Below, piece by piece: positions 8,001 to 49,512 of a stretch of DNA of 64,000 nt. Made by a program: the position numbers and the translations under genes. This DNA is from Podarcis cretensis (taxonomy: Eukaryota): the NCBI GenBank assembly GCA_951804945.1, contig OX638155.1, positions 5,580,001 to 5,644,000 on the forward strand. The letters run 5' to 3'. The notes beneath the pieces are model-generated. The model was not told the DNA's origin. It searched no databases and saw only the letters and a program-made list of their open reading frames with translations. Position 1 is the stretch's first letter. Each line of letters starts with the position of its first letter.

Positions 8001-8042
8001 TGCAATTCTCTCTCTGAGCCTCAGAGTGTCACTGTTGGCCAG
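8001..8042 (+). promoter_or_regulatory. CSE/CTCF site of V2 (CACT variant)
   Basis: tgcaattc...cctcagagtgtCACTgttggccag: CTCF upstream-motif-like element plus core. Confidence 0.8.
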
Positions 8043-8306
8043 TGTGGTGCCAGAAAAAAGGATGGAGCTCTAGTTATGCTTCTCCTACAAAGTGAGTGTC
8101 TCATCAGTTCTGTACAGACTGGGCAAAGAGAAAAACACAAAGGTGTTGCAGTCTGGCTGAAAAAAAGGAAAAGGCTCCCAGTCCTCGCAATCTAAGAAGG
8201 AAGACAGTTTATATTTACTTACAGAGATTTCCTCTGTGCTATTGGGAAACTGATCTGGTCACTACAAGCTGCAGAAAAGGAGGCAGAAAATTTCTCAGTA
8301 ATCTGG

Positions 8307-10727
8307 ATGGACAAAAGGCAGGAAGAGGATGGCAGAACACTCAGAAGGCAAGTACTGCTTCTCTTATTTTTGCCTTTCTCCTGCTGGGCTGCCTCAGAGC
8401 AGATTCGCTATTCTATCCCTGAGGAGATGGCAAAGGGTTCGATTGTGGGGAATCTCGCCAAGGATTTGGGACTGAATGCCAGAGATCTAGGAAGGCGCAA
8501 TCTGCATGCTGCCTCTGTGAACAAAATGCAATATTTCAGTATAAGTGCAGACAATGGAAACCTTTATGTGAATGACAGAATTGATAGGGAGGAAATATGT
8601 GGCACAACTCCACTCTGCCTTATTAATTTTGAAGTGGTGATGGAAAATCCTTTAAATGTTTTCCATATAACAATAGTTATACAGGATATTAATGATAATG
8701 CACCACAGTTCCTCAGTGATATAACCAACTTGGAGATCGTAGAATCAACTGTTCTAGGAACCAGATTTCTCCTTGGGAAAGCAGAAGATCCTGATATTGG
8801 GTTGAACTCTCTCCAGAATTACCAGCTGAGCTCCAACCACTACTTCACCTTGGAAGTAAGGGAGAGAAAAGATGGAAATAAATATGCAGAATTAGTGCTA
8901 AGTAAAGTTATGGATCGAGAAAGTGAACAAACAATTCACTTGATCCTTACAGCCTTGGATGGGGGTGAACCAAGAAAAACTGGGACTGTCCAGATACGGA
9001 TTAATGTCACGGATGCCAATGACAACCCACCTGTTTTCACTCAGGAGGTGTACAAAGTCAATTTACCTGAAAATGTTCCTGTTGGGTCACTTGTGCTCCA
9101 GGTTGTAGCCTCAGATAAAGACGAAAGCACTTATGCTCAGATCAGGTATCAATTCAGCAACATAGCAGCAAACACCCACAAGAAATTCAGTTTGGATCCA
9201 ATTAATGGCATAGTCACTCTTACGGGACTGCTCAACTTTGAGGAAACTAAAGAATATACCATGACAGTAGAAGCCAAAGATGGTGGTGGATTGGTGGCAC
9301 AATCCAACATTGAAATAACTGTGCTTGATGAGAATGATAATGCCCCAGAGGTGACTTTAGCCTCCATGTTCAGTCCTGTTCCTGAAGATTCTCTGCCAGG
9401 AACTGTTATTGCTCTGATCAATGTAAATGACAGAGATAGTGGAGATAATGGAAAGGTCACTTGCTATTTACAGGATGATTTACCCTTCAAAATTCTTCCC
9501 TCATCTAACAATTACTTCAAGCTCCAGACAGACAGTCTCCTGGACAGAGAAAGAGCTCCTGCATATAATATTACAATCACAGCCACTGACAGAGGAACTC
9601 CACCTCTTTCCACACACAAAACAATCTCACTACAGATCTCAGATATCAATGATAATGCCCCTACCTTTCAGAAGCCATCCTACAACATCTATGTGCCAGA
9701 AAACAATCCTTCAGGTGCCTCCATTTTCACCATCAAAGCCTCTGATTCTGACATGGATCAGAACTCACGGATCACATACTCCATCCTCAACAGCAACATC
9801 GAGGAGCTTCCCATCTCCTCCTATATCTCCATTAATTCAGAGACCGGCACCATCTATGCCCAGAGATCCTTTGACTATGAACAATTCCGAGAGTTCCATC
9901 TTCAAGTGAAGGCCCAAGATGGGGGTTCTCCCCCTCTCAGCAGCAATGTGAGCGTCAGGGTGTTTGTTCTTGACAGGAATGATAACAGCCCTCGTATCCT
10001 GTCCCCCTCACAAGAAGCCAAGGGCTCAGCCTTGTTTGAGATGGTGCCTCGTTCGGCCGAGGCAGATTACCTTGTCACCAAGGTGGTGGCCGTGGATGCA
10101 GATTCCGGACACAACGCCTGGCTCTCCTACCACCTGACTCAGGCCACTGAGCCAGCACTCTTCACGGTTGGTTCTCATACTGGAGAGATCAGGACCGCCA
10201 GGGCCTTTGTGGAGAGAGACGCTGTGAAACAGAGACTGGTCATTATGGTGAAGGATAATGGGCAGCCGTCTCTCTCGGCCACCATGACTCTGAACCTGGT
10301 GTTTGCTGAGAACTTTCAGGAGGCCCTTCCGGAAATGAAGAGGCAACCCAGCAGCTCAGAGTATCAGTCTGACCTGCAGTTCTACTTGGTGCTGGCCTTA
10401 GCTGTGATCTCCTTCTTGTTCCTCTTGACTGTCATTCTGGCCGTTACAATGAAGCTCCGTCAATCAGGGCATCCCAGGTTCCTACAGTGCTTTGGTCCTG
10501 TTCCCCATTCCAAGAATGGTGCCATCTTCCCACCCAACTTTGAAGATGGGACTTTGCCCTATTCCTACCAGCTGTGTCTGTCTTCTGAGACCAAGAAGAA
10601 TGAGTTTGCCTTCCTGACACCCAATGTTCAAATGGCAGACAATATTCTTAGCGGTGAGAAACCTGCTGTGCCTTTTACAGGCAATGTAGGAAACAATTTT
10701 GCTTCTGCAGTAGATAATGGAGAAGAG
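8307..10727 (+). CDS. PCDHGB: Protocadherin gamma-B-like variable exon V2 (type B1; ORF to 10745)
   Basis: 812-aa ORF, six cadherin repeats and TM. Gamma-B motifs [39 protein letters not shown]. Phase-0 donor GAG|GTAAGG at 10727/10728. Confidence 0.95.
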
Positions 10728-13151
10728 GTAAGGTTTGTTTTCTGAAATTAAATGCCATTATCCATCATTCTTTGCCATTAGTGACATTGTCACAGTGCTT
10801 TTTATCTAGCTAATGTGACTGCCTTTTTGTTTTTCATCATATAAATGAATAGTTTGGCTCTTACATCATTTGGCTTTCATGAATCAGGATGCGTCCTTTT
10901 CACTCCATGGGGAAGCTACACATCCATACGGAAGCTTCGAGCCATGACCTTGAAACCATCTGGTAGAACTTATCTTGTTGTCCTTTGAACAACTAGTATT
11001 TTGAGGAGTTGACCTTCAACTACTTTCATTAACTTAAATAAAGTGAGGGAAAGAACTTTAATTTTCACATTACTTGGCTTTGGGGGGGCAGCAATTTTGG
11101 CTGTAGAATCAAAGGAGGGCACCTTGCTATATAGCAGAAAATACTATCACTGTTATTAGTATTACTAGCAAAAAAAATTAAGCAATAGATTTTAAAGACA
11201 TACACTTTTGAGAGGTTTCTGTAAATTATGCTTTATTTCCTTCTCAAATTAATAGGCATGTGTGTTCCTGCATGAGTGATGTAAAAAAAAGTCAAGTCAA
11301 GACTGATTGACTGACTGACTGGCCTTCTAGAGTAGATTGTGGATATTTCCAGCCCCCATATTCCTTTAAGTGAAACCACATTGCATTAAAGCTCTTTCTA
11401 AACAACTGTCTGAAAGGCGGACAGGCAGACAGATAATGTGGGATATTTTGTTAAAGACATGAATTGTGCATTTATTTATTTTTTAAATTTATTTAAAACA
11501 AAAATAAAACAATTACATACAGTCAGAGAGTTATCTTCGAATACTCCACAGAGCTTTGCTAAAGTGTATATTCTAAAATCATTTCAATCTTAACCAAAAC
11601 AAAATGGTACGTAATAACCTCCATCTCTTTGACTGTTGTCAACAACTATAAACATATATTGTATCAGCAGCCATGCTGGTCTGCAGGGATTATACAAAGG
11701 AGGAAAAATAAAATAAAATATGTGCTTCATACACACCAAACTGTGCTGTAGGCCAAGGCACCGTTCTGCCACATGCCTCATTGTTTGTATAATCTATAAG
11801 GTCATCCAAGACTGCATAAAAGTTATCATATTTCCCCTGGCCTCTTGCTATCTTCAATTTCCATGTCAGTTTTTTCAATAATGCTACCTGCCAGATTACA
11901 CTGCCTGCATCATGTATTTCTGCCTCATGATTTAGACAATAATAATGATAGTTACATGATATTTATATGTTTCAAAGGGCATTGCATATAATGGGTCAGA
12001 TTCAGAATTAGTTATCCTTAGACCAAGTTAGTCAAGCAAGACTAATTTAAGTCAATTTTATTTAAGTCGGGCTACTTTAAGTATGATGAAGTCTGGATTT
12101 GACACATTATCTTATAATTCTTATATAAGTGAGTTCCTGTCAGAGGCAAAATTCATACCATGGAATTCCTGGTTCACAGTTTTGTTCTTTACATGAGACC
12201 AGCTCAATATACATGAAGCATGTTGAATTCTTGAACTGCTCTACCAACATGTTAGCTATGCTGCTTACATGACATGAATGCATGAATAGATGGACAATTG
12301 TATTTCTGATCATAGCATTGTGGGATATCTCAGCAGGTACTTGAGTTACTTAAGCCTGCAATGAACCACCCCCTCCAACTCCCTTCTGGGCTCATGGCCA
12401 GTAGGGCAGATGTGAGGATGGAGGAGTGTTCTTGCCAGGGTTGGTGCTAGCTGTTGGAAGGAATTAGGGGACAGGACCATGACTGACAATTGCAGTGTGC
12501 TCAGCTACCATGTAAACAAAGAAAAATAAGTTTAAAAATGGAAGGGAAAGCTCAGAACATTTGAGATCCAGCATTTAACACCCAGGGCTTATTTATGCAA
12601 GTTTTGTTCCTTGATTAAATGAAGTTGCATTGACAGCTGGAGATGATATGTAGCTTCCTAAAATACTGAAAGGACCGTAGTGATTTCTGAGTAGCTTTCT
12701 GGTTGTCCTGTCCCACCCCCACTCCCCGCCGGCAAAATAGGGGTCTCCATATTGTTTCAGTGAAATTATATAAAGATAAACACAATTTTCAGACACGTCC
12801 TTAGGCTTTCCACACACAGTCTAAGATGCCTGGAAATACCTAATACAATATTTTTCTAATTTGTTTAAAAGTATTTTATTATAAACAACAATATCATTCT
12901 CATACTGCTGTCTGCTATTCTGATTTTTTCTAAAGAAATAGTGGAAATAGTGCTATAAATTCATTACTGCTTTTTCTTTGCTGTAAATATTCATTTGAAG
13001 CTGATTTCTTTTAACCTATTGTAATGGTGAACAGATAACACTTTCCAACAGGCATATTCAAATAACCTGTATGAGAATATGGTCTGAGCCATTACTTAAA
13101 AATGACTATGTAATGTCATGAATTAGGGAAGAAAAATCACTGGGAAAAGAT

Positions 13152-13193
13152 TGCAGTTCTCGGTTTCAGACTCACAGTGTCACTGTTGGACAA
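13152..13193 (+). promoter_or_regulatory. CSE/CTCF site of V3 (CACT variant)
   Basis: tgcagttc...gactcacagtgtCACTgttggacaa. Confidence 0.8.
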
Positions 13194-13432
13194 GGCGGCA
13201 ATCCAAGGGCAGCTGAAGTTCCACTGATGCTTTCTGCAGAGAGATCTCTTTGTCCTGAACTGCACATCGGGAATACCAGCAGACGCTGCAACAAACGTTT
13301 CAGCTGGAAAACAGAAAACACTGCAGCATATACAAATTAAGCCAAAGGATCCAGTTCTTTTTTTACTGGGCAAAAAAATCTCCTGTTTTCGTGGAAATCT
13401 GAAATCCTGTGCTCATCAAAGAGAAGGGGAAA

Positions 13433-15862
13433 ATGAAGGTGAGAGGAATCCTTCATGGAGAGAGCTTTCAAACACCAGGGAGGTATATTACCCTTCTGAT
13501 ATTTTCATCTTTGTTCTGTAGAGCAGTTTTGGAAGAGGTTCACTATTCCATCCCTGAGGAGATGGCAAAGGGGTCTTTGGTGGGAAATCTTGCCAAGGAT
13601 CTGGGACTAAATGCCAGAGAACTGAAGAGCAGAAACCTGCATATCATTTCTGAAGGTAAAAAGCCATATTTCACTATCAATGCTGAAAATGGAAACCTGT
13701 ATGTGAATGAGAGGATAGATCGTGAGGGGATGTGTAGAGAGAGCACACACTGCATTATTGATTTTGAAGCTGTGGTGGAAAAGCCATTGAATGTTTTCCA
13801 TGTAAGTGTAGCAATTCAGGACATTAATGATAATGCCCCACAATTCTTAGAAGCTAATATTAGACTTGAAATAATTGAATCCACATTGCCAGGTGCTAGA
13901 TTTCTCCTTGGGAAAGCTGAAGATCCTGATATTGGGATTAATTCTCTTCAAAACTACCAGTTAAACATAAATCAGTTCTTTGTATTAGAAATTAAACACA
14001 GTCTAGATGGCCATAAAAATGCAGAATTGCTCCTGCAAAAACCTTTGGATCGGGAAAGTGAGCACTCGCTTCAGTTGATCCTTACAGCTCTTGATGGAGG
14101 TGAACCCAAAAAAACTGGGACTGCCCAGATATGGATTAACGTCACAGATGCCAATGACAACCCACCAGTCTTCACTCAAGAGGTTTATACAGTTAGCCTG
14201 AGGGAAAATTCCCCTGTGGGGTCCTCCATACTCCAAGTAAAAGCCTCTGATAGGGATGAAGGTTCAAATAGTCAGATCCATTACACATTCAGTAAAGTCC
14301 CAGAAAAAGTGTATGAGAAATTTAGACTAGATCCACAAAGTGGAACAATTACAATTAAGGAGAGCCTTGACTTTGAGGAAACAGAGAAGTACACTATGGC
14401 AGTTGAAGCAAGAGATGGAGGTGGATTAGTGGCTCACTCTAATGTTGATATAAAGATTATAGATGAGAATGACAATGCTCCAGAAATTATTCTAGCCTCC
14501 TTATCTTCTCCAATTCCCGAAGATTCTGTTTCTGGAACAGTAATAGCTCTCATCAATGTAAAGGATAGGGATTCTGGAGAAAATGGAAAGATCACCTGCC
14601 ACTTACAAAGTAATGTACCATTTAAAATAGTGTCAACATCTAAGAACTACTACAAAATCCTTACAGACAGTCCTTTGGACAGAGAAAAAGCCTCAGGATA
14701 CAACATCACAATCACAGCTACTGACAAAGGTAGCCCCCCTCTCTCCTCCAACAAAACCATCTCCCTGCAGATTTCAGATATCAATGACAATCGCCCTGCC
14801 TTTGAAAAATCATCTTATAGTGTCTTTGTGCCTGAAAACAATCCCTCAGGTGCCTCCATTTTCTCCATCAAAGCCTCGGACCCGGATCTGGACCGCAACT
14901 CACGTATCACTTACTCCATCCTCAACAGCAACATGGAGGAGCTGCCTCTCTCCTCTTATGTGTCCATCAACTCTGAGACGGGAACTATCTATGCACAGCG
15001 CTCCTTTGACTATGAGCAATTCAGGGAGTTTCAGATCCAAGTGAAGGCCCAAGATGGCGGCTCTCCCTGTCTCAGCAACAACGCCACCGTGTGGGTGTAC
15101 ATTTTGGATCAGAATGATAACAGCCCCCGCGTTCTGTATCCTGTCCCGGGTGTTGAGGGCTCTGCCTTGTTTGAGATGGTTCCTCACTCAGCAGAGCCAG
15201 GCTACCTAGTGACCAAAGTGGTGGCTGTGGACGCAGACTCTGGGCACAATGCCTGGCTCTCCTACCAAGTGCTGCAGGCCACAGAGCCAGCCCTCTTCAC
15301 CATTGGGACCCACACGGGAGAGATCAGGACATCACGAGCCCTTCTGGAGAAAGATGCTGTGAAACAGAAGCTGGTCATCTTGGTGAAGGACAATGGGAAG
15401 GCTCCGCTCTCAGCTACTGTGGTCCTCAACCTCGTGGTTGCCGAGAACTTCCAAGAGGCACTTCCAGAAATGACTAGGCAATCCAGTGACACAGAGCATC
15501 ATTCTGACCTCCAGTTTTACTTGGTGCTGGCTTTGGCATTGATCTCATTTTTATTCCTCCTGACGGTGATACTGGTCATTGTCATGAAACTTCGACAGTC
15601 AGGAAATCCCAAATTATTCCAATGCTTTGAACCTAATGCTTTTTCTAAGGCGCAGGTCATATTTCCACCAAACTATGAAGAAGGAACTTTACCTTATTCC
15701 TACCAACTCTGCCTATCGTCAGAGATGAGGAAAGAGCAGATCTCTTTCCCAAAACCCCATATCCAGGTGGCAGAAAACTTGCTATGCAATGATAGCTCTC
15801 AGGTGGTTCTTGTGGATGGCAGCTGTGGGGATGCCAGTGCCAAAGAGGAGGTTGGTGAGCAG
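13433..15862 (+). CDS. PCDHGB: Protocadherin gamma-B-like variable exon V3 (type B2; ORF to 15898)
   Basis: The ORF track starts at GTG 13409; first in-frame ATG is 13433. Six EC repeats, [36 protein letters not shown]. Phase-0 donor CAG|GTAAGC at 15862/15863. Confidence 0.95.
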
Positions 15863-16299
15863 GTAAGCTTTGCTTTCAGAAATGGCCTTACCTTATAAGA
15901 ATAAAACTAATATTTTTATTTCATTTTACTATATAAAGGGGTCAGGAAAACAAAATTACAGTGTTAACAGCAGTTGTTCTGATTGTGAAGAACTTTCCCT
16001 ACACATAGAAATGCTAGACGAAGCATAAATTCTGAGGCATGCAATAATGGCAGAGTGAGTCTTCATCTCAGGAATTAATTGAAATGTAAGCATGCATACA
16101 GCTTGAGTGTTCAATCTTCCTGTGGGGTATTAGCATGTCACCATAAATATATAGTTATTTATACATCCCTCATCAATTAAAAATAAGGATTTGTACTTTT
16201 TCACTCACACAAAGCACATTTTATTTGCCCTGTTATGATCAGCTTAACTGAAGAATGCATAAAACGTGAATTCTTCCTATTTATTTGTAGTATTATTTT

Positions 16300-18981: not shown

Positions 18982-19023
18982 TGCAGTTCCTTGAGTGGTC
19001 CTCTAAGTGTCAGTGTTGGCCAG
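18982..19023 (+). promoter_or_regulatory. CSE/CTCF site of V4 (CAGT variant)
   Basis: tgcagttccttgagtggtcctctaagtgtCAGTgttggccag. Confidence 0.8.
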
Positions 19024-19294
19024 TATGAGAGCCAGAGAGAGGATAGAGATCCATTGATGCTTCCTAGACTGCAGTAACTCCCATCCCTGCTATTCAGATC
19101 AAGCCAACTGAAGAGCACAGAGACAGGGAACTCTTGCAGAGAAGGAAAAATCTCTTTTGCTTTGCACACATGTGAGAACAAGGGCAATTTATTCTTCCTC
19201 AGTGATACCTCATGTTGTTTCCTGCATCACTGTGAGAGCTTGAGCATAGGAAACTGAGAAAAGGAAGCAGCCTGTTTTTGAGAGAACCAGCCAG

Positions 19295-21715
19295 ATGGAG
19301 AGAAGGCACACAGGGAATGGCAGGGCACTCACAAGGCAAGTACTGCTTCTCTCTCTATTGTCTTTTACCTGTTGGGCTGCATCAGAGCAGATTCATTATT
19401 CAACCCCTGAGGAGATGGCAAAGGGTTCTGTTGTGGGGAACCTCGCCAAGGAGCTGGGACTGAGCACCAAAGAACTAAAACATCGCAATCTGCACACTGT
19501 GTCTGTGGCTAAAATGCAGCATTTCAGTATCAATGCAGAGAATGGAAACCTCTATGTAAATGACAGGATTGATAGGGAGGGGATATGTGGCAAAAATCCA
19601 AATTGCTTTGTTAATTTTGAAGTTGTGGTGGAAAACCCTTTGAATATTTTTCATGTGCTAGTGGAAATCCAGGATGTTAATGATAATGCACCACAATTCC
19701 TCAATGGCAACATCAACTTGGAGACAGGAGAACAAACTTTGCCAGGCACTCGATTTCTCCTTGGGAAAGCAGAAGATCCTGACATTGGGATGAACTCTCT
19801 CCAGGATTACCAGCTGAGCTCCAATCAGTACTTCAGTTTGGAAATTAGAGAGAGAAAGGATGGAAATAAATATGCAGAACTGGTGCTACAGAAACCTCTT
19901 GATCGAGAAAGTGAACAGACCCTTCACTTGGTTCTTACCGCTATGGATGGGGGTGAGCCTAGGAAAACTGGGACGGCCCAGATACAGATTAATGTCACAG
20001 ATGCCAATGACAACCCACCTGTTTTCAGTCAAGAGGTATACAAGGTCAGCTTATCTGAAAATCTTCCTGTTGGGTCACTTGTGCTCCAGGTTGCAGCCTC
20101 TGATAAAGATGAAGGTTTATATGCCCAAATCAGGTATCATTTTAGCAACATACCAGCAACTGCCGAACGGAAATTCAAGCTGGATCCCATCAGCGGCCAA
20201 ATCACACTACTGGAGCAACTGGATTTTGAGGACAATGATGAATATACGATGACAGTTGCTGCAAAAGATGGAGGTGGATTGATGACACATTCTAACATTG
20301 AGCTAAGGGTTCATGATGAGAATGATAATGCCCCGGATGTGACCTTAGCCTCCATGTTCAGCCCTGTTCCTGAAGATTCTCTGCCAGGGACAGTTATTGC
20401 TCTGATCAATGTAAATGACAGAGATAGTGGAGATAATGGGAAGGTCACTTGCTATTTACACGATGATTTACCCTTCAAAATTCTTCCCTCATCTAACAAT
20501 TACTTCAAGCTCCAGACAGACAGTCCTTTGGACAGAGAAATAGCTCCTGCATATAGTATTACAATCACAGCCACTGATAAAGGAACTCCACCTCTTTCCA
20601 CACACAAAACAATTTCACTACAGATCTCAGATATCAATGATAATGCCCCTACTTTTCAGAAATCGTCTTACAACATCTACGTGCCAGAAAACAATCCTTC
20701 AGGTGCCTCCATTTTCACCATCAAAGCCTCTGATTCTGACATGGACCAGAACTCACGGATCACATACTCCATCCTCAACAGCAACATCGAGGAGCTTCCC
20801 ACCTCCTCCTATATTTCCATTAATTCAGAGACCGGCACCATCTATGCCCAGAGATCCTTTGACTATGAACAATTCAGAGAGTTCCATCTGCAAGTGAAGG
20901 CCCAAGATGGGGGTTCTCTCCCTCTCAGCAGCAATGTGAGCGTCAGGGTGTTTGTTCTTGACAGGAATGATAACAGCCCTCGTATCCTGTCCCCCTCACA
21001 AGAAGCCAAGGGCTCAGCCTTGTTTGAGATGGTGCCTCGTTCGGCCGAGGCAGATTATCTTGTCACCAAGGTGGTGGCCATGGATGCAGATTCCGGACAC
21101 AACGCCTGGCTCTCCTACCACCTCACTCAGGCCACTGAGCCGGCACTCTTCACAGTTGGTTCTCATACTGGAGAGATCAGGACAGCCAGGGCCTTTGTGG
21201 AGAGAGACGCTGTGAAACAGAGACTGGTCATTATGGTGAAGGATAACGGGCAGCCGTCTCTCTCGGCCACCATGACTCTGAACCTGGTGTTTGCTGAGAA
21301 CTTTCAGGAGGCCCTTCCGGAAATGAAGAGCCAACCCAGCAGCTCGGAGTATCAGTCTGACCTGCAGTTCTACTTGGTGCTGGCCTTAGCTGTGATCTCC
21401 TTCTTGTTCCTCTTGACTGTCATTCTGGCCGTTACAATGAAGCTCCATCAATCAGGGCATCCCAGGTTCCTACAGTGCTTTGGTCCTGTTCCCCATTCCA
21501 AGAATGGTGATATCTTCCCACCCAACTTTGAAGATGGGACTTTGCCCTATTCCTACCAGCTGTGTCTGTCTTCTGAGACCAGGAAGAATGAGTTTGCCTT
21601 CCTGACACCCAGTGTTCAGATGGTAGACAATATTCTTGGCAGTGAGAAACCTAGTGTGCCTTTTACAGGCAACAGTGGAAACAGTTTTCATTCTGAGATG
21701 GCTAATGGTGAAGAG
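19295..21715 (+). CDS. PCDHGB: Protocadherin gamma-B-like variable exon V4 (type B1; ORF to 21835)
   Basis: Full six-EC plus TM ORF. Phase-0 donor GAG|GTAAGA at 21715/21716. Confidence 0.95.
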
Positions 21716-25837: not shown

Positions 25838-25879
25838 TGCAGTTCTCGGTTTCAGACTCACAGTGTCACTGTTGGACAA
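25838..25879 (+). promoter_or_regulatory. CSE/CTCF site of V5 (CACT variant)
   Basis: Identical to the V3 element. Confidence 0.8.
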
Positions 25880-26121
25880 GGCGGCAATCCAAGGGCAGCT
25901 GAAGTTCCACTGATGCTTTCTGCAGAGAGATCTCTTTGTCCCAAACTGCACATCGGGAATACCAGCAGACGCTAAAACAAACGTTTCAGCTGAGAAAGAA
26001 AAAAGAAAACACTGCAGCATATACAAATTAAGCCAAAGGATCCAGTTTTTTTTATTGGGCAAAAAAATCTCCTGTCTTGGTGGAAATCTGAAATCCTGTG
26101 CTCATCAAAGAGAAGAGGAAA

Positions 26122-28551
26122 ATGAAGATGAGAGGAATCCTTCATGGAGAGAGCTTTCAAACATCAGGGAGGTATATAACACTTCTGATATTATCATCTT
26201 TGTTTTGTGGAGCAGTTTTGGAAGAGGTTCACTATTCCATCCCTGAGGAGATGGCAAAGGGATCTTTGGTGGGAAATCTTGCCAAGGATCTGGGACTGAA
26301 TGCCAGAGAACTGAAGAGCAGAAACCTGCATATCATTTCTGAAGGTAAAAAGCCATATTTCACTATCAATGCACAAAATGGAAACCTGTATGTAAATGAA
26401 AGGATAGATCGTGAGGAGATATGTGAGGAGAGTGTACACTGTCTGATTAATTTTGAAGCTGTGGTTGAAAATCCTTTGAATGTTTTCCATATTATTGTAG
26501 CAATTCAGGACATTAATGATAATATGCCACAGTTCTTAAATGAAATCATGAGGCTTGAAATTGTTGAATCCACATTAGCAGGTACAAGATTTCATACTGG
26601 GAAAGCGGAAGATCCTGATATTGGGACTAATACTCTCCAGAATTACCAGCTAAGTCCAAATCACTATTTCATTCTAGAGATTCGACAGGGAGAAGATGGC
26701 CATAAATCTGCAGAATTGGTGTTGCAAAAATCTTTGGATCGGGAAAGTGATCACTCCCTTCAGTTGATCCTTACGGCCCTGGATGGGGGTGAACCCAGAA
26801 AAACTGGGACTGCCCAGATATGGATTAATGTCACAGATGCCAATGACAACCCACCAGTCTTCACTCAAGAGGTTTATACAGTTAGCCTGAGGGAAAATTC
26901 TCCTGTGGGGTCCCCAATACTGCAAGTAAAAGCCTCTGACAGGGATGAAGGTCTGAATGCCCAAATTCATTATACATTTAGTAATATTCCTAAAAGAGCC
27001 TACCAAAAATTTGACCTATTTCCACAAAATGGAACAATTACAATTAAGGAAGCTCTTGACTTTGAGGAAACAGAGAAGTATACTATGACCGTTGAAGCAA
27101 GAGATGGAGGTGGATTAGTGGCTCATTGTAATGTCAATATAAAGATTCTAGATGAGAATGACAATGCACCAGAGATCATTCTGGCCTCCTTATCTAGTCC
27201 AGTTCCTGAAGACTCTGTTTCTGGAACAGTAATAGCTCTCATCAACATAAAGGATAGGGATTCTGGAGAAAATGGAAAAAGTACATGCCACTTACAAAGT
27301 AATGTACCATTTAAAATAGTGTCAACATCTAAGAACTACTATAAAATCCTCACAGACAGTCCTTTGGACAGAGAAAAAGCCTCAGGATACAACATCACAA
27401 TCACAGCCACCGACAAAGGTAGCCCCCCTCTCTCCTCCAACAAAACCATTCCCCTGCAGATTTCAGACATCAATGACAACCCCCCTGCCTTTGAAAAATC
27501 AAGCTACAGTGTCTTTGTGCCTGAAAACAATCCCTCAGGTGCCTCCATTTTTGCCATCAAAGCCTCGGACCCGGATCTGGACCGCAACTCACGTATCACT
27601 TACTCCATCCTCAACAGCAACATGGAGGAGCTGCCTCTCTCCTCTTACGTCTCCATCAACTCTGAGACGGGAACTATCTATGCACAGCGCTCCTTTGACT
27701 ATGAGCAATTCAGGGAGTTTCAGATCCAAGTGAAGGCCCAAGATGGCGGCTCTCCCTCTCTCAGCAACAACGCCACCGTGTGGGTGTACATTTTGGATCA
27801 GAATGATAACAGCCCTCGCGTTCTGTATCCTGTCCCGGGTGTTGAGGGCTCTGCCCTGTTTGAGATGGTTCCTCACTCAGCAGAGCCAGGCTACCTAGTG
27901 ACCAAAGTGGTGGCTGTGGACGCAGACTCTGGGCACAATGCCTGGCTCTCCTACCAAGTGCTGCAGGCCACAGAGCCAGCCCTTTTCACCATTGGGACCC
28001 ACACGGGAGAGATCAGGACATCACGAGCCCTTCTGGAGAAAGACGCTGTGAAACAGAAGCTGGTCATCTTGGTGAAGGACAATGGGAAGGCTCCGCTCTC
28101 AGCTACTGTGGTCCTCAACCTCGTGGTTGCCGAGAACTTCCAAGAGGCACTTCCTGAAATGACTAGGCAATCCAGTGACACAGAGCATCATTCTGACCTC
28201 CAGTTTTACTTGGTGCTGGCTTTGGCATTGATCTCATTTTTATTCCTCCTGACGGTGATACTGGTCATTGTCATGAAACTTCGACAATCAGGAAATCCCA
28301 AATTATTCCAATGCTTTGAACCTAATGCTTTTTCTAAGGCGCAGGTCATATTTCCACCAAACTATGAAGAAGGAACTTTACCTTATTCCTACCAACTCTG
28401 CCTATCGTCAGAGATGAGGAAAGAGCAGATCTCTTTCCCAAAACCCCATATCCAGGTGGCAGAAAACTTGCTATGCAATGATAGCTCTCAGGTGGTTCTT
28501 GTGGATGGCAGCTGTGGGGATGCCAATGCCAAAGAGGAGGTTGGTGAGCAG
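26122..28551 (+). CDS. PCDHGB: Protocadherin gamma-B-like variable exon V5 (type B2; ORF to 28575)
   Basis: First in-frame ATG 26122. Six EC plus TM. Phase-0 donor CAG|GTAAGC at 28551/28552. Confidence 0.95.
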
Positions 28552-30290: not shown

Positions 30291-30343
30291 ACTTGAAATT
30301 TGCTAAAGGGAAAGTACTGTACATTGCACAACATGGTTTTCCT

Positions 30344-30385
30344 TGCAGTTCCTTGAGTGGTCCTCTAAGTGTCAGTGTTGGCCAG
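30344..30385 (+). promoter_or_regulatory. CSE/CTCF site of V6 (CAGT variant)
   Basis: Identical to the V4 element. Confidence 0.8.
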
Positions 30386-30656
30386 TATGAGAGCCAGAGA
30401 GAGGTTAGAGATCCAGTGATGCTTCCTAGACTGCAGTAACTCCCATCCCTGCTATTCTGATCAAGCCAACTGAAGAGCACAGAGACAGGGAACTCTTGCA
30501 GAGAAGGAAAAATCTCTTCTGCTTTGCACAAATATAAGAACAAGGGCAGTTTATTCTTCCTCAGTGATGCCTCATGTTGTTTCCTTCATCCCTGTGAGAG
30601 CTTGAGCATAGGAAACTGAGAAAAGGAAGCAGCCTGGTTTTGAGAGAACCAGCCAG

Positions 30657-33077
30657 ATGGAGAGAAGGCACACAGGGAATGGCAGGGCACTCACAAGGCA
30701 AGTACTGCTTCTCTCTCTATTGTCTTTTACCTGTTGGGCTGCATCAGAGCAGATTCATTATTCAACCCCTGAGGAGATGGCAAAGGGTTCCGTTGTGGGG
30801 AACCTGGCCAAGGAGCTGGGACTGAGCACCAAAGAACTAAAACATCGCAATCTGCACACTGTGTCTGTGGCTAAAATGCAGCTTTTCAGTATCAGTGCAG
30901 AGAATGGAAACCTCTATGTAAATGACAGGATTGATAGGGAGGGGATATGTGGAAAAAATCCACATTGCTTTGTTAATTTTGAAGTTGTGGTAGAAAACCC
31001 TCTGAATGTTTTCCATGTCACAGTAGAAATCCAGGATGTTAATGATAATGCACCCCAATTCCTGAATAGCAATATCAATTTAGAGATGCTTGAATCCACT
31101 TTGCTAGGCACTCGATTTCTCCTTGGGAAAGCAGAAGATCCTGATGTTGGAATGAACTCTCTCCAGGATTACCAGCTGAGCTCCAATCAGTACTTCATTT
31201 TGGAAGTTAGAGAGAGAAAAGATGGAAATAAATATGCAGAATTGGTGTTGCAGAAATCTTTGGATCGGGAAAAAGAACAAACCCTTCACTTAGTACTTAC
31301 CGCAATGGATGGGGGTGAGCCTAGGAAAAGTGGAACAGCCCAGATACGGATTAATATCACTGATGCCAATGACAACCCTCCCATTTTCACTCAAGAGGTG
31401 TACAAGGTCAGTTTGAGTGAAAATGCTCCTATTGGATCCACGGTGCTCCAGGTCATAGCCTCTGATGATGATGAAGGTTCATATGCCCAAATCAGGTATT
31501 ATTTCAGCAACATACCAGCAACTTCCCAAGAGAAATTCAGTCTAGATCCCATTGGTGGCATAATCACCCTCTTGGAGCGACTGGATTTTGAGGACAATGA
31601 TGAATATACTATGACGGTCGCTGCAAAAGATGGTGGGGGATTGGTGACTCATTCCAATATTGAGATAAGGGTTCTTGATGAGAATGATAATGCCCCGGAT
31701 GTGACCTTAACCTCCATGTTCAGCCCAGTTCCTGAAGATTCACCATCTGAAACCTTAATTGCTCTGATCAATGTAAATGACAAAGATGCCGGTGATAATG
31801 GAAAGGTTACCTGTTATTTAAACAGTGATTTGCCCTTCAAGATTGTTTCCTCATCTAACAATTTCTACAAACTTCTCACAGTCAGCCCTTTGGACAGAGA
31901 AAAAACTCCTGCATATAATATTACAATCACAGCCACTGACAATGGAACTCCCCCACTGAACACCCATAAAGTCATCTTACTACAGATATCTGATATCAAT
32001 GATAATGCCCCTTCCTTTGAGAAATCTTTGTATGCTATCTATGTGCCAGAAAACAATCCTTCAGGTGCCTCCATTTTCACCATCAAAGCCTCTGATCCCG
32101 ACATGGACCAGAACTCACGGATCACATACTCCATCCTCAACAGCAACATTGAGGAGCTTCCCATCTCCTCCTATATCTCCATTAATTCAGAGACTGGCAC
32201 CATCTATGCCCAGAGATCCTTTGACTATGAACAATTCAGAGAGTTTCGGGTGCAAGTGAAGGCCCAAGATGGGGGTTCTCCCCCTCTCAGCAGCAATGTG
32301 AGCGTCAGGGTGTTTGTTCTTGACAGGAATGATAACAGCCCTCGTATCCTGTCCCCCTCACAAGAAGCCAAGGGCTCAGCCTTGTTTGAGATGGTGCCTC
32401 GTTCGGCCGAGGCAGATTATCTTGTTACCAAGGTGGTGGCCGTGGATGCAGATTCTGGACACAACGCCTGGCTCTCCTACCACCTGACTCAGGCCACTGA
32501 GCCAGCACTCTTTACGGTTGGTTCTCATACTGGAGAGATCAGGACAGCCAGAGCCTTTGTGGAGAGAGACACTGTGAAACAGAGACTGGTCATTATGGTG
32601 AAGGATAACGGGCAGCCATCTCTGTCGGCCACCATGACTCTGAACCTGGTGTTTGCTGAGAACTTTCAGGAGGCCCTTCCGGAAATGAAGAGCCAACCCA
32701 TCAGCTTGGAGTATCAGTCTGACCTGCAGTTCTACTTGGTGCTGGCCTTAGCTGTGATCTCCTTCTTGTTCCTCTTGACTGTCATTCTGGCCATTACAAT
32801 GAAGCTCCGTCAATCAGGGCATCCCAGGTTCCTACAGTGCTTTGGTCCTGTTCCTCATTCCAAGAATGGTGCCATCTTTCCACCCAACTTTGAAGATGGG
32901 ACTTTGCCCTATTCCTACCAGCTGTGTCTGTCCTCTGAGACCAGGAAGAATGAGTTTGCCTTCCTGACACCCAGTGTTCAGATGGTAGACAATATTCTTG
33001 GCAGTGAGAAACCTGCCGTGCCTTATACAGGCAACAGTGGAAACAATTTTCATTCTGAGATGGCTAATGGTGAAGAG
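30657..33077 (+). CDS. PCDHGB: Protocadherin gamma-B-like variable exon V6 (type B1; ORF to 33185)
   Basis: Six EC plus TM. Phase-0 donor GAG|GTAAGG at 33077/33078. Confidence 0.95.
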
Positions 33078-36699: not shown

Positions 36700-36741
36700 T
36701 GCAGTTCTCGGTTTCAGACTCACAGTGTCACTGTTGGACAA
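36700..36741 (+). promoter_or_regulatory. CSE/CTCF site of V7 (CACT variant)
   Basis: Identical to the V3 and V5 elements. Confidence 0.8.
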
Positions 36742-36983
36742 GGCGGCAATCCAAGGGCAGCTGAAGTTCCACTGATGCTTTCTGCAGAGAGATCTCTTTG
36801 TCCCAAACTGCACATCGGGAATACCAGCAGACGCTGCAACAAACGTTTCAGCTGGAAAACAGAAAACACTGCAGCATATACAAATTAAGCCCAAAGATCC
36901 AGTTCTTTTTTTTACTGGGCAAAATAAAATCTCCTGTCTGGGTGGAAATCTGAAATCCTGTGCTCATCAAACAGAAGAGGAAA

Positions 36984-39413
36984 ATGAAGATGAGAGGAAT
37001 CCTTCATGGAGAGAGCTTTCAAACATCAGGGAGGTATATTACCCTTCTGATATTTTCATCTTTGTTTTGTGGAGCAGTTTTGGAAGAGGTTCACTATTCC
37101 ATCCCTGAGGAGATGGCAAAGGGGTCTTTGGTGGGAAATCTTGCCAAGGATCTGGGACTGAATGCCAGAGAACTGAAGAGCAGAAACCTGCATATCCTTT
37201 CTGAAGGTAAAAAGCCATATTTCACTATCAATGCTGAAAATGGAAACCTGTATGTGAATGAGAGGATAGATCGTGAGGGGATGTGTAGAGAGAGCACACA
37301 CTGCATTATTGATTTTGAAGCGATGGTTGAAAAGCCATTGAATGTTTTCCATGTAAGTGTAACAATTCAGGACATTAATGATAACGCCCCACAATTCATA
37401 AAGGGCAATATTGGGCTTCAAATAATTGAATCCACATTACCAGGTGCCAGATTTCTCCTTGGGAAAGCTGAAGATCCTGATATTGGTATTAATTCTCTCC
37501 AGAATTACCAGCTAAGTCCAAATCACTATTTCATTCTAGACATACTAGAGAGAGAAGATGGCCATAAATATGCAGAATTGGTGTTGCAAAAATCTTTGGA
37601 TCGGGAAAGTGAGCACTCGCTTCAGTTGATCCTTACGGCCCTGGATGGGGGTGAACCCAGAAAAACTGGGGCTGCCCAGATATGGATTAACGTCACAGAT
37701 GCCAATGACAACCCACCAGTCTTCACTCAAAAAGTTTATACAGTTAGCCTGAGGGAAAATTCTCCTGTGGGGTCCCCAATACTCCAAGTAAAAGCCTCTG
37801 ATAGGGATGAAGGTCTAAATGCACATATTAGTTATATTTTTAATAACATCCCAGAAACAGCCCACCAAATATTTGAACTAGATCCACAAAGTGGAACAAT
37901 TACAATTAAGGAAGCTCTTGACTTTGAGGAAACAGAGAAGTACACTATGGCAGTTGAAGCAAGAGATGGAGGTGGATTAGTGGCTCACTGTAATGTTGAT
38001 ATCAAGATTATAGATGAGAATGACAATGCTCCAGAGGTCATTCTTGCCTCCTTATCTAGTCCAATTCCTGAAGACTCTGTTTCTGGAACAGTAATAGCTC
38101 TCATCAACGTAAAGGATAAAGATTCTGGAGAAAATGGAAAAATTACATGCCATCTACAAGGTAACGTACCATTTAAAATAGAGTCTGTATCTAAGAACTA
38201 CTACAAAATCCTTACAGACAGTCCTTTGGACAGAGAAAAAGCCTCAGGATACAACATCACAATCACGGCCACCGACAAAGGTAGCCCCCCTCTCTCCTCC
38301 GAAAAAACCATCTCCCTGCAGATTTCAGACATCAATGACAACCCCCCTGCCTTTGAAAAATCAAGCTACAGTGTCTTTGTACCAGAAAACAATCCCTCAG
38401 GTGCCTCCATTTTCTCCATCAAAGCCTCAGACCCGGATCTGGACCGCAACTCACGTATCACTTACTCCATCCTCAACAGCAACATGGAGGAGCTGCCTCT
38501 CTCCTCTTACGTCTCCATCAACTCTGAGACGGGAACTATCTATGCACAGCGCTCCTTTGACTATGAGCAATTCAGGGAGTTTCAGATCCAAGTGAAGGCC
38601 CAAGATGGCGGCTCTCCCTCTCTCAGCAACAACGCCACCGTGTGGGTGTACATTTTGGACCAGAATGATAACAGCCCTCGAGTTCTGTATCCTGTCCCGG
38701 GTGTTGAGGGCTCTGCCCTGTTTGAGATGGTTCCTCACTCGGCAGAGCCAGGCTACCTAGTGACCAAAGTGGTGGCTGTGGACGCAGACTCTGGGCACAA
38801 TGCCTGGCTCTCCTACCAAGTGCTGCAGGCCACAGAGCCGGCCCTCTTCACCATTGGGACCCACACGGGAGAGATCAGGACGTCACGAGCCCTTCTGGAG
38901 AAAGATGCTGTGAAACAGAAGCTGGTCATCTTGGTGAAGGACAATGGGAAGGCTCCACTCTCAGCTACTGTGGTCCTCAACCTCGTGGTTGCCGAGAACT
39001 TCCAAGAGGCACTTCCAGAAATGACTAGGCAATCCAGTGACACAGAGCATCATTCTGACCTCCAGTTTTACTTGGTGCTGGCTTTGGCATTGATCTCATT
39101 TTTGTTCCTCCTGACGGTGATACTGGTCATTGTCATGAAACTTCGACAGTCAGGAAATCCCAAATTATTCCAATGCTTTGAACCTAATGCTTTTTCTAAG
39201 GCGCAGGTCATATTTCCACCAAACTATGAAGAAGGAACTTTACCTTATTCCTACCAACTCTGCCTATCGTCAGAGATGAGGAAAGAGCAGATCTCTTTCC
39301 CGAAACCCCATATCCAGGTGGCAGAAAACTTGCTCTGCAATGATAGCTCTCAGGTGGTTCTTGTGGATGGCAGCTGTGGGGATGCCAGTGCCAAAGAGGA
39401 GGTTGGTGAGCAG
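36984..39413 (+). CDS. PCDHGB: Protocadherin gamma-B-like variable exon V7 (type B2; ORF to 39467)
   Basis: First in-frame ATG 36984. Six EC plus TM. Phase-0 donor CAG|GTAAGC at 39413/39414. Confidence 0.95.
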
Positions 39414-42675: not shown

Positions 42676-42718
42676 AGTTGGATATACAATGAGAATCGAA
42701 ACAAAAAAATGTAGTGTG

Positions 42719-42760
42719 TGCAGTTCCTGGCTGTGACTCTGAGTGTCGCTGTTGACCAAC
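42719..42760 (+). promoter_or_regulatory. CSE/CTCF site of V8 (CGCT)
   Basis: tgcagttcctggctgtgactctgagtgtCGCTgttgaccaac. Confidence 0.85.
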
Positions 42761-42945: not shown

Positions 42946-45357
42946 ATGGCAACAGCAAAGTATCCTCAAGCTTGCAAAAGGAGAGTTTTCTTTTTATTTC
43001 TGTTTGCTAACATCTGCCAAGCCATCACCAGACAGATCCAGTACTCCATTCCTGAAGAAACTGAGAGAGGCTTTTTGGTGGGGGATATTGCAAGGGATCT
43101 TGGACTGGATGCAAAGAAGCTCTCAGATCGTGGAATTCGCATTGTTTCCCCAGGTAGGACTCAGTATTTTGCTTTGAATTATAAGAGTGGCCATTTGCAC
43201 ACCACAAAGAGAATAGACAGAGAGGAGATCTGTGGTCAGGAAGAGAAATGCATTTTGAATTTTGAGATTATAGTTGAAGATTCAATGAAAATTTATGGAG
43301 TTGAAGTGGAAGTCACAGATATCAATGACCATGCGCCCACCTTCCCGTCAGAGAAACTAGTGATAAATATCAGCGAGAATGCAGCTTTGGGGTCCCAGTT
43401 TCCCCTCTTGGAAGCTCAAGATCCTGATTTAGGAAACAATTCTCTACAGGGGTACAAACTCAGCAACAATAGCCATTTTTCTTTGATTCTCCAAACATCA
43501 GTTAAGGGCAAACAATATGGAAAAATTGTGTTGGAAAGACCTCTTGACCATGAAAAAGAAGCAGTTCATAATTTTATCATCACCGCATATGATGGTGGTG
43601 ATCCAGTCAGGAGTGGCACTGCACAGCTGCACATTACAGTCCTGGATGTGAATGACAATGCACCAATTTTTAGCCAACACATTTATGAAGTGAGCGCAAG
43701 GGAGGATTTACCTATAGGAACCATTGTGGTTACATTAAAAGCTACTGATTTGGATGAAGGGACCAACAAAGAAATGACATTTTTATTTGCAAAAATCACG
43801 GAAAAGATTTCCCAGATATTTCACTTAGATACACACACAGGTGAGATAACTCTCATAGGAAGCTTAGACTACGAAGACTCTGCTCTTTATGAAATGGAGG
43901 TCCAAGTCCATGATAGTGGAGGTCTATTTGACACTTCAACTGTCATAGTATTTGTTACTGATGTAAATGACAATGCACCCAAACTGGAAATAACTTCACT
44001 TATCAGCTCCATCCCTGAGAACTCTCCACCAGCGACTGCAATAGCCCTTTTGAATGTGCAAGATGAGGATTCAGCAGAGAATGCAGAAGTCACGTGCTCT
44101 ATCCCCAGCAACCTCCCCTTTCTACTGACAAAAGCCTATGGCAACTACTACAGTTTGGTGACAGCAAGAGCCCTGGACAGAGAGCAGGTAGCAGCCTACA
44201 ACATCACTGTCACAGTCACAGATCACGGGACCCCTCCACTTTCCACATCAATTGTTATTCCACTTGAGCTTTTAGACACAAATGACAACCCTCCACACTT
44301 CCTGCAATCCATTTATACTTCATATTTAATGGAGAACAACCCAAGAGGGGCCTCCATATTTTCCCTGAAGGCTGATGATCCAGACTGTGGAGAGAACTCC
44401 AGAGTCACTTATTCCATCATTGAGCACAACATCAGTGACTCCCCAGTATCTTCCTTCCTCTCCATTAACTCTGAGACTGGGATTGTCTATGGCCTGATCT
44501 CTTTTGATTATGAAGAGATGAGGGAGATGAAGTTCCTGGTCAAGGCCCAGGATGGAGGCTCTCCGCCACTCAGCTCCAACGTCTCAGTGACTCTCTTCAT
44601 CCTGGACCAGAATGACAATGCTCCCCAAATCCTTTACCCTTCCCCTCCCACTGACGGCTCCACAGGGATAGAGCTGGCCCCTCGCTCCTCAGAGCCAGGC
44701 TACCTGGTCACTAAGGTGGTGGCCATGGATGCGGACTCTGGCCAGAATGCCTGGCTCTCCTACCAGCTGATCAAGGCCACTGAGCCAGGGCTCTTCACTC
44801 TGGGGCTCCACACAGGAGAGATCAGGACAGCCCGCTTCTTTCTGGAGAAAGATGCCCTCAAGCAAAGCCTGGTGGTTTTAGTCAAGGACAATGGGCAGCC
44901 ACCTCTCTCTGCTTCAGCCACTCTGACTGTGGTGCTGGCTGACGCCATCCCTGCAATCCTCTCAGACCTGAGCAGCATCTCAGCTCCTGTAGAGCCTCCA
45001 TCTGACCTCACCTTCTACCTGGTCCTTGCAGTGGCTTTTGTCTCCTGCTTGTTCTTCATCTTCCTCCTTGTGTTACTGGCAGTTAAACTTCATAGGTGGA
45101 GATATTCACAGTCTGGAACTGAGAAGTTTAGTGGAGTTCCAGTTTCCCAGTTTGTGGGGATTGACGGAGTCCGAGCATTTCTGCACTCCTACTGCCAGGA
45201 GGTTTCTCTCACTACAGACTCTAGGAAGAGCAATTTTGGATTTCCAAAGAGAAATATTTCCAATACTATGACCAGTCACCAGCCCTGTGAGATAAATTAT
45301 CCCTTTCTCATTGCTGAAGAGATTGCAAACAGTAATGGGGATTCAGCCAATATACAG
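42946..45357 (+). CDS. PCDHGA: Protocadherin gamma-A-like variable exon V8 (ORF to 45408)
   Basis: The ORF track starts at TTG 42853; ATG 42946 has a good context (ggaATGg). Six EC plus TM, gamma-A cytoplasmic motif. Phase-0 donor CAG|GTGAAG at 45357/45358. Confidence 0.93.
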
Positions 45358-48865: not shown

Positions 48866-49044
48866 TATCTCAAAGGGCCTTCCACTGCATTTAAAAAGGG
48901 ATAGTTTGTGCTTCTTTTGCATGTATGTGTAAGGGGAATAATGAAAATCTGCCAGAGCCACCAATCCCATTTTGAAAGGGAGCTGGATTGAGGCCAGTTA
49001 GAAAATAAATGAAATCTATTCATAACCAAACATTATGAGTGTAG

Positions 49045-49222
49045 TTACAGGTAGGTAACTGTATTGGTCTGCCGTAGTTGAAACAAAATAAAAAAATTCC
49101 TTCCAGTAGCACCTTAGAGACCAACTAAGTTTGTTATTGGTATGAGCTTTCGTGTGCATGCACAAAGAAGTGTGCATGCACGTGAAAGCTCATATCAATA
49201 ACAAACTTAGTTGGTCTCTGAG
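49045..49222. mobile_element. Penelope-like element remnant with long inverted repeat
   Basis: cagtagcaccttagagaccaactaagtttg...gagctttcgtgtgcatgcaca and its inverse form ~49-bp arms (49116-49164 / 49171-49219), the usual structure of squamate Penelope-like remnants. Confidence 0.6.
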
Positions 49223-49470
49223 TGTAGTTTATTTTATTTTTGTTTTATTTATATTGCTGTTTTGGACCTGTACCCCACCCTGGAAGCCTTTGTTGCTGAA
49301 AGGGTGGACAATAAAAGTAATAAGTAATAAATATGCTAAACAAAGGTGAAACAAGGAAAAGCTTTTTCAAATGCCCCACTTGCAGTTGGCTAAAGAGAAA
49401 GTTCACATTGTAGAAACATGTACATTCTTTCAGTTCCATCTTTCTATGTTATGGTGAACATGGTTTTCCT

Positions 49471-49512
49471 TGCAGTTCCTTGAGTGGTCCTCCAAGTGTC
49501 AGTGTTGGCCAG
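49471..49512 (+). promoter_or_regulatory. CSE/CTCF site of V9 (CAGT variant)
   Basis: tgcagttccttgagtggtcctccaagtgtCAGTgttggccag (one difference from V4/V6). Confidence 0.8.

Follow-up and report, generated by a model that had tools for sequence, protein, structure and literature searches.

In the mammalian clustered Pcdh genes, as presented in PMC7811963, PMC6881428, and PMC7087399 (after Wu 2001, Guo 2012), each variable exon is preceded by one forward-oriented CSE, an arrangement shared by the lizard array described here. The CGCT box of this element corresponds to CTCF core positions 12 to 15 in the numbering of Yang 2023. According to Jia 2020, a CpG is present in every CTCF site at a mammalian alternate promoter, whichever of the three clusters it belongs to, and the Fig. 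S1 legend of Lu 2019 gives all mouse gamma CSEs as CGCT except those of c4 and c5; a preliminary description of the lizard locus had allowed that CACT and CAGT variants might be equally common in mammals, which these published statements speak against. Reports on the effect of box methylation conflict. Papers from the Wu laboratory find that it blocks CTCF, whereas Yang 2023 found CTCF to be methylation insensitive at C12 and observed either CpG or CpA at core positions 12-13, with ZF3/ZF4 binding all forms; in Zuo 2023 mCpG matters at positions 2-3 only, and in Golan-Mashiach 2012 CSE methylation had no effect on its complex. In mouse alpha, it was methylation of the first exon, not of the CSE, that transcription followed (Kawaguchi 2008, as summarized in another paper). 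Jia 2020 also describes constitutive occupancy of the CpG-less HS5-1b site and cell-specific occupancy of CpG-containing promoter sites, and the route of beta and gamma promoter demethylation is described in the literature as unclear. Box methylation had been taken in the preliminary description as an established switch, a premise that these conflicting binding data do not sustain. CSEs without CGCT are also not novel, being known for Xenopus and zebrafish alpha (PMC4978886). Closest in taxonomy is the anole Pcdh-gamma subcluster, in excerpts of PMC2764143 a gammaB-rich squamate array like ours, with interspersed gammaA and gammaB genes and pseudogenes; in that excerpted text promoters are not analyzed and "CGCT" has 0 occurrences.

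Array and promoter elements

By its sequence, the window (the whole analyzed stretch of 64,000 nucleotides from Podarcis cretensis) is a lacertid Pcdh-gamma array of two gammaA and eight gammaB exons, V1 to V10 (Table 1). All ten are intact, with one large exon per gene, ORFs of 812 to 846 aa, and a phase-0 donor each; Pfam Cadherin_2, Cadherin, and Cadherin_C_2 were found in 3/3 full exons scanned, and the top PDB matches were gammaB4 for V4 and V10 and gammaA9 for V8. Pcdh-gamma variable exons are recognized by a large single exon encoding a signal peptide, six cadherin repeats, a TM segment, and a cytoplasmic stub, by a phase-0 donor, and by gammaA or gammaB as nearest match, and the exons of the window agree with this description. 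Within families, EC2-3 is diversified (78 to 86% identity) while exon ends are homogenized, as might be expected of an identity code, and gene conversion looks stronger than that reported for anole gammaB in PMC2764143. In a FastTree exon tree (62 sequences, 2 partial ones dropped, with 54 of 120 matches picked by hand), V2 and V4/V6/V9 each have a separate Rhineura relative. A metagenome scan with V4 EC1-2 returned 27 loci and no close relative (24 to 54% identity, the higher values over ∼50 residues), and exact look-up of four ORFs found none of them. Among 24 sequencing runs listed in a search, 20, from 8 organisms, contain part of positions 12000-21900, none of them on record as RNA.

TABLE 1 CSEs and variable exons of the Pcdh-gamma window
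Feature	Positions	Strand	Box	Remarks
V1 CSE (CTCF core 1-15 + downstream module)	2392..2416	+	CGCT 2403-2406	TGCAG upstream motif absent
V1 variable exon	2687..5101	+		gammaA type, intact, phase-0 donor
V2 CSE with upstream motif TGCAATT	8001..8043	+	CACT 8030-8033	Footprint without CpG
V2 variable exon	8307..10727	+		gammaB clade 1
V3 CSE	13152..13194	+	CACT 13181-13184	CpG at core -9, also +27 just outside
V3 variable exon	13433..15862	+		gammaB clade 2
V4 CSE	18982..19024	+	CAGT 19011-19014	Within 612-bp CpG-free run 18832-19444
V4 variable exon	19295..21715	+		gammaB clade 1; closest full-length relatives lacertid, 90%
V5 CSE	25838..25880	+	CACT 25867-25870	Footprint same as V3/V7
V5 variable exon	26122..28551	+		gammaB clade 2
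V6 CSE	30344..30386	+	CAGT 30373-30376	
V6 variable exon	30657..33077	+		gammaB clade 1
V7 CSE	36700..36742	+	CACT 36729-36732	
V7 variable exon	36984..39413	+		gammaB clade 2
V8 CSE	42719..42760	+	CGCT 42747-42750	
V8 variable exon	42946..45357	+		gammaA type
V9 CSE	49471..49513	+	CAGT 49500-49503	
V9 variable exon	49784..52204	+		gammaB clade 1
V10 CSE	56704..56746	+	CGCT 56733-56736	Sole gammaB site with box CpG
V10 variable exon	56952..59384	+		gammaB clade 2

Every promoter carries one CSE, forward in all ten cases and 199 to 284 bp 5′ of the ATG, and no minus-strand CSE was found in the window. The ten scored 30.7 to 37.9 bits against 13.1 for the next best site, with a scan profile built from six of the ten sites it scored. 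We rejected a CSE on the reverse strand, as the upstream module fixes forward orientation, and a search with an NRSE pattern matched no site.

All ten boxes were re-read and agree with the preliminary description: CGCT in V1, V8, and V10; CACT in V2, V3, V5, and V7; and CAGT in V4, V6, and V9. The Pcdh CGCT box is thus present in 3/10 sites, 3/6 promoter lineages, and 1/8 gammaB promoters rather than array-wide. The earlier count of seven CpG-less boxes in ten stands, but not the weight given to it, since the seven fall in duplicated families and reflect some two to three loss events. Promoters share 96 to 97% identity among V3/V5/V7 and 93 to 96% among V4/V6/V9, compared with 53 to 68% between lineages; because both trios are near-identical duplicates, we count loss by lineage, and on the sequence evidence the box CpG is lost in three of six lineages, in about two to three events. 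The CpG-less families are those that expanded. The V4/V6/V9 lineage has an additional C-to-G change at core position 14, and the cores of V10 and V3/V5/V7 differ only at positions 11 and 13. Loss in gammaB clade 1 could predate the lacertid-amphisbaenian split, because V2 and V4/V6/V9 each have their own Rhineura relative.

For site comparison we used CCASYAGRKGGCRS, which we take to be the CTCF core consensus and by which G at core position 14 would presumably be acceptable to CTCF. Core positions 12 to 14 agree with this assumed consensus in 10/10 sites, and overall mismatches number 3 to 6 of 14 (CAGT sites fewest, with 3; CGCT sites, 4 to 6), these being mismatch counts rather than scores from a measured matrix. 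An upstream TGCA[GA]TT motif lies 8 to 9 nt 5′ of the core in 9/10 sites, so that core 12-14 and upstream motif occur together at the right spacing for a CTCF site. Across the six lineages, 8/15 core columns and 5/10 immediately downstream are invariant, against 0/128 and 3/126 in the ungapped flanks, and the 44-bp footprint has no variable column among V3/V5/V7 and two among V4/V6/V9. At the methylation-sensitive core positions 2-3, none of the ten sites has a CpG. The CACT and CAGT CSEs are likely still functional CTCF sites.

CpG content and turnover

CpGs were counted from 45 bp 5′ of the box to the ATG. V4, V6, and V9 promoters have none; this confirms the preliminary count for V4 (0 CpG in 18982-19295), and those of one CpG in the V2 promoter and six in V3 also held. 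No CpG occurs around the V4/V6/V9 boxes over a span that reaches at least 134 bp to the 5′ side and at least 418 bp to the 3′ side (>550 bp in total), V2 has a single CpG within 370 bp of its box on either side, and V10 has its box CpG alone and then none for the next 510 bp. Promoter CpG poverty is not tied to box type, because V10, with CGCT, is as bare as V4 and the CACT promoters V3/V5/V7 are the most CpG-rich (5 to 6 each). Calculated per promoter, as the preliminary description had suggested, CpG o/e ranges from 0 to 0.41 and is 0.17 when pooled, compared with 0.241 for the window and 0.24 for exons (TpG/CpA, 1.3). At the window-wide o/e, 2.7 to 4.2 CpGs are expected per promoter; the probability of zero is 0.015 to 0.019 for the V4 family, one of six lineages tested, and 13/98 intergenic 330-bp windows also lack CpG. 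The scarcity is therefore not far beyond chance given locus-wide depletion. With island thresholds of GC ≥ 0.5 and o/e ≥ 0.6 in 500-bp windows, no CpG island lies on any CSE-to-ATG stretch; the three island-like windows, at 6201, 39681, and 52651, are all off promoters, and none of the ten is a CpG-island promoter of mammalian type. Lizard non-methylated islands have been reported with mammal-like o/e.

Exonic CpGs turn over quickly: across duplicates, 2/30 were kept in exon segment 1 compared with 32/78 GpCs (P = 4e-4), and 28/63 in segment 2 compared with 114/136 (P = 3e-8), which points to a locus methylated in the germline. V1, V8, and V10 nevertheless share the box CpG, despite four-fold-site distances of 0.8 to 1.9, while over the initial 1050 bases of their coding sequence not one of 27 CpGs is common to all three; G13 is thus, judging from these alignments, protected or selected in half of the lineages and not freely neutral. 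The TpG product is absent at the box, which is not significant with only two to three events. V3/V5/V7 promoters retain 5/6 CpGs (at core -9, at +27, and at three positions further downstream, conserved across copies) compared with 19/34 in the 3′ exon, a nonsignificant difference (P = 0.37) that hints at local protection.

Isoform choice without a box CpG

We consider it reasonably probable that CpG deamination at a tolerated position of conserved CSEs, spread by duplication, has left isoform choice that is not gated by core methylation. In three lineages the box CpG likely became CpA through methyl-cytosine deamination, probably no more than ordinary CpG decay; duplication and gene conversion then likely multiplied this CpA form, which CTCF reportedly accepts. 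CTCF would still occupy the CpG-less sites, which would form loops with downstream enhancers, and core methylation would not control this occupancy. Isoform choice would probably be set at the chromatin level by repressive chromatin, cohesin extrusion, and enhancer competition, and any effect of DNA methylation on choice among these isoforms would be indirect. As the preliminary description held, the seven CACT and CAGT cores are unable to carry 5mCpG at the box. Since a box CpA cannot be methylated as CpG, choice among the seven genes probably cannot rest on that one site.

Mammal-like logic could instead operate through other CpGs in the flanks or 5′ exon, or the CAC or CAG of the box could itself be methylated as a non-CpG site, so that box loss matters little; we regard this as unlikely. 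CAC and CAG are preferred contexts of non-CpG methylation, and V3/V5/V7 keep the conserved promoter CpGs. The first-exon correlation in mouse alpha (Kawaguchi 2008) fits as well. However, a heritable switch would be improbable at the CpG densities of V2 and V4/V6/V9, and the conservation in V3/V5/V7 is not significant. Rather more doubtful is the stronger reading of the preliminary description, in which CpG-less CSEs are constitutively CTCF-bound, fixed insulators and these gammaB isoforms are expressed broadly or by position rather than stochastically. In its favor, mismatches to our assumed consensus are fewest in the CAGT sites. The constitutively occupied HS5-1b site (Jia 2020) is a precedent, but CTCF binding alone need not imply transcription, the exons belong to an ordinary gammaB expansion, their EC2-3 diversified and their ends homogenized, and frog and fish keep large arrays with CGCT-less CSEs (PMC4978886). 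That CACT and CAGT mark degenerating, weak CTCF sites whose isoforms are rarely chosen is very improbable: CGCT, reported as the conserved mammalian state, survives here in three deep lineages, but outside the box the sites are preserved, upstream motif included, the footprints scarcely vary within either trio, and the exons are intact and belong to the expanded families.

Whether CGCT CpG methylation is a cause or a mere companion of Pcdh promoter choice is disputed, and the array offers a natural control in V10 (CGCT) versus V3/V5/V7 (CACT), with the V4/V6/V9 boxes lying in >550 bp free of CpG. Stochastic choice of the CpG-less isoforms would mean that the neuronal barcode can do without box methylation; constitutive expression would bear out what the insulator model predicts for sites lacking CpG. 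More tentatively, because the array has no promoter islands and most of its gammaB CTCF sites are unmethylatable, lacertid (perhaps squamate) gamma-Pcdh genes may achieve stochastic single-neuron choice without promoter methylation, and the mammalian switch may overlay a methylation-independent CTCF/cohesin/heterochromatin mechanism.

Comparison with described systems

The array resembles mammalian Pcdh clusters in its upstream module and core, its CSE-to-ATG distance, and its interspersed gammaA and gammaB exons. Mammalian alternate-promoter sites, as reported, each have a CpG and are flanked by CpG islands, whereas in the lizard 3/10 sites have one and no promoter is island-like; this contrast is genuine, with the mammalian side taken from published statements. 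Generic vertebrate CTCF sites (PMC10484683, PMC10287918) share C12 followed by A and an upstream TGCA(G/A)T motif, and HS5-1b (PMC7087399) is likewise a CTCF site without CpG. Unlike generic sites, those described here lie in promoters of a gene-choice array, deviate in a CSE-specific way at core positions 3 and 11, and end in a conserved tail, GTT..C.A. CSEs of Xenopus tropicalis and zebrafish (PMC4978886) are retained at a similar distance, with CGCT absent in alpha and less conserved in frog gamma. Relative to these, compared through the published description of frog and fish boxes, the present case concerns an amniote gamma cluster in which loss is mapped to lineages and in which a sister gammaB promoter, V10, retains CGCT beside the CpG-less ones.

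Variable exons and their promoter elements

The plus strand of the window carries ten ORFs of 812 to 846 codons (V1 to V10, in order), which are clustered-protocadherin variable exons. All ten end in a phase-0 GT donor, and Pfam Cadherin_2, Cadherin, and Cadherin_C_2 were found in all three full exons scanned. Among solved structures, V4 and V10 are most similar to gammaB4, and V8 to gammaA9. A ten-sequence tree places V1 and V8 in gammaA, V2 and V4/V6/V9 in gammaB clade 1, and V10 and V3/V5/V7 in gammaB clade 2. Among full-length homologues, V4 comes closest to those of Lacerta, Zootoca, and Podarcis (89 to 90%), against 61 to 85% for other squamates and 48 to 54% for mammals, which places the array in a lacertid lizard.

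One plus-strand CSE, the CTCF-type promoter element, lies 199 to 284 bp before each ATG. Its four-nucleotide box reads in all ten as the preliminary description had it, and the CpG counts given there (none for V4, one for V2, about six for V3) were likewise correct; promoter counts for V1 to V10 are 4, 1, 6, 0, 5, 0, 5, 3, 0, and 1. Seven of the ten CSEs do lack a box CpG, as claimed, but promoters are 96 to 97% identical within V3/5/7 and 93 to 96% within V4/6/9, so the absence concerns only three of six promoter lineages (V1, V8, V10, V2, V3/5/7, V4/6/9) and two or three events. Between lineages, promoter identity is 53 to 68%, as given by a permissive global alignment run without a shuffle control.

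Promoter boxes and other features of the array (window coordinates)
Feature	Position	Box	Observation
CSEs of V1, V8, V10		CGCT	
CSEs of V2, V3, V5, V7		CACT	
CSEs of V4, V6, V9		CAGT	
Stretch before V1 CSE (gammaA)	2370-2391	CGCT	Upstream TGCA[GA]TT module missing, in V1 alone among the ten
V4 CSE to ATG	18982-19295	CAGT	No CpG
CSE-like sequence	56226-56249	CACT	Weak (13.1 bits), ~500 bp upstream of V10 CSE; possibly a chance match
Small CpG-richer patch	56041-56251		Contains the CSE-like sequence; comes after a gammaA remnant
gammaA-type remnant	55637-55813		177 bp from the transmembrane region; 92.6% identity to V1
gammaA-type exon remnant	62268-63737		Both translated stretches interrupted by stops in each of the three frames; no CSE scoring >9 bits upstream
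Island-like patches	6201-7071; 39681-40231; 52651-53181		The window's sole 500-bp island-like patches, all intergenic
Repeat copies	6497-6840; 39810-40148		Inverted, 78% identity
Intergenic homology	13114-17974 vs 25801-30294		
Intergenic homology	23097-24260 vs 34109-34865		

CpG depletion and the probable history of box CpG loss

The observed/expected CpG ratio is 0.241 both window-wide and in exons, and 0.17 when promoters are pooled; TpG and CpA stand at about 1.3. None of the ten promoters has an island-like window over its CSE-to-ATG stretch; more widely, no array promoter, CGCT or not, is a CpG island. Lizard non-methylated islands show mammal-like ratios according to the available text of Long et al. 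2013 (PMC3583005), and the array promoters therefore do not resemble such islands. The intergenic island-like patches are probably mobile-element DNA, since two segments are inverted copies of one repeat. Among duplicates, 2/30 and 28/63 exonic CpGs were kept, compared with 32/78 and 114/136 GpCs (p = 4e-4 and 3e-8, coding constraint uncorrected); such low retention would be the signature expected of germline methylation. The zero count of the V4 family has P = 0.015 to 0.019 at the window rate and represents one lineage of six; 13 of 98 intergenic windows of V4-promoter size, of lower GC, also lack CpG. V3/5/7 lack the box CpG yet carry 5 to 6 promoter CpGs, including one at core -9 and one at +27, and V10 retains CGCT yet is otherwise CpG-free for 510 bp.

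With gammaA and V10 being CGCT, the simplest history is one clade-1 loss followed by C-to-G in V4/6/9, together with a separate loss in V3/5/7; the count would rise to three events if V2 and V4/6/9 lost the CpG independently. In a FastTree of 62 EC1-3 sequences, a homologue set biased by the V4 query, the Rhineura protein that groups with V2 is not the one that groups with V4/6/9 (supports 0.96 and 0.97); if clade 1 lost the CpG only once, the loss would therefore be older than the split between lacertids and amphisbaenians. Unlike the ten-sequence tree, this one nests V10 inside V3/5/7, a conflict that we read as gene-conversion mosaicism. Divergence from promoter through exon is mosaic in V3/5/7 and V4/6/9. 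The promoter, the opening 300 coding bases, and the 3′ part of the exon are homogenised (13/295, 16/300, and 55/1300 variable columns in V3/5/7), while coding bases 301 to 1100 are diverged (153/800 in V3/5/7); gene conversion sparing EC2-3 is the likely cause. Homology continues into intergenic DNA, which suggests that V3-V4 and V5-V6 are the product of a duplicated two-exon block.

Probable retention of CTCF sites and promoter choice

As Yang et al. 2023 (PMC10484683, accessible portion) number the core, the box occupies positions 12 to 15, and its changes sit where CTCF reportedly tolerates them. Zuo et al. 2023 (PMC10287918, likewise in part) find a significant energy change only from mCpG at positions 2-3, at which CpG is absent from all ten sites. 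Invariant columns over the six lineages number 8/15 in the core and 5/10 in the downstream module, versus 0/128 and 3/126 in ungapped flanks, and the upstream motif is kept 8 to 9 nt before the core in 9 of 10 sites. The ten CSEs thus appear, from sequence, to be CTCF sites still under selection. Plain neutrality is argued against by the box CpG, which V1, V8, and V10 have in common across four-fold distances of 0.8 to 1.9, whereas the 27 CpGs in their first 1050 coding bases include none shared by all three. The box CpG is therefore protected or selected in half of the lineages; bound CTCF is one example of what may protect it. V3/5/7 promoter CpGs are kept in 5 of 6 cases, not significantly different from the 3′ exon (p = 0.37), and the TGCT box is absent, also not significant given two to three events.

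We consider it fairly probable that the CACT and CAGT CSEs function as CTCF promoter sites, that their box CpG decayed where change is tolerated, the locus being methylated and island-free, and that the CpG-less box was then multiplied by duplication; isoform choice would be left to enhancer competition, loop extrusion, and the state of the chromatin. H3K9me3 and cohesin/WAPL have roles in mammalian choice. The earlier proposal that box CpG methylation cannot be the switch for CACT and CAGT isoforms holds on sequence grounds. A switch by methylation of nearby CpGs or of non-CpG sites is unlikely. Neurons carry mCAC. Somewhat more doubtful is constitutive occupancy with broadly expressed isoforms, although the CpG-less HS5-1b site is said to be constitutively bound in the available text of Jia 2020 (PMC7087399). 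That CACT and CAGT mark decaying sites is very improbable. Core positions 12 to 14 agree in 10/10 sites with what we take to be the CTCF consensus, with fewest mismatches in the CAGT sites; tolerance of G at position 14 is presumed from the same consensus.

Comparison with other vertebrates

Going by published descriptions of mammalian sites, each in the part accessible, the contrast with mammals is real: a CpG is said to be present in each alternate-promoter site (Jia 2020, PMC7087399), CGCT in all mouse gamma CSEs but c4/c5 (Lu 2019, PMC6881428), and CpG islands to flank each promoter (PMC10463633), whereas this array has a box CpG in 3/10 CSEs and no promoter island. Available passages differ on methylation, which precludes CTCF binding to CGCT in a review (PMC7811963) and Lu 2019 (PMC6881428) but leaves the CSE complex unaffected in Golan-Mashiach 2012 (PMC3333863), which also cites CSE methylation that is mosaic and does not depend on transcription. 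According to the text seen of PMC8787164, no antisense lncRNA was detected in the beta and gamma clusters, and how these are demethylated is described as unclear. The accessible part of an anole paper (PMC2764143) does not treat promoters, those of PMC11947266, PMC3431597, and PMC2926608 hold nothing on box variants, and a literature search, with most subscription literature outside its reach, found no account of CSE variants in reptile gamma clusters. CSEs without CGCT are on record for Xenopus and zebrafish alpha clusters, the box being less strongly conserved in Xenopus gamma (PMC4978886, in part), and here occur in lizard gamma; a different regulatory logic for these isoforms would be partly anticipated by frog and fish.
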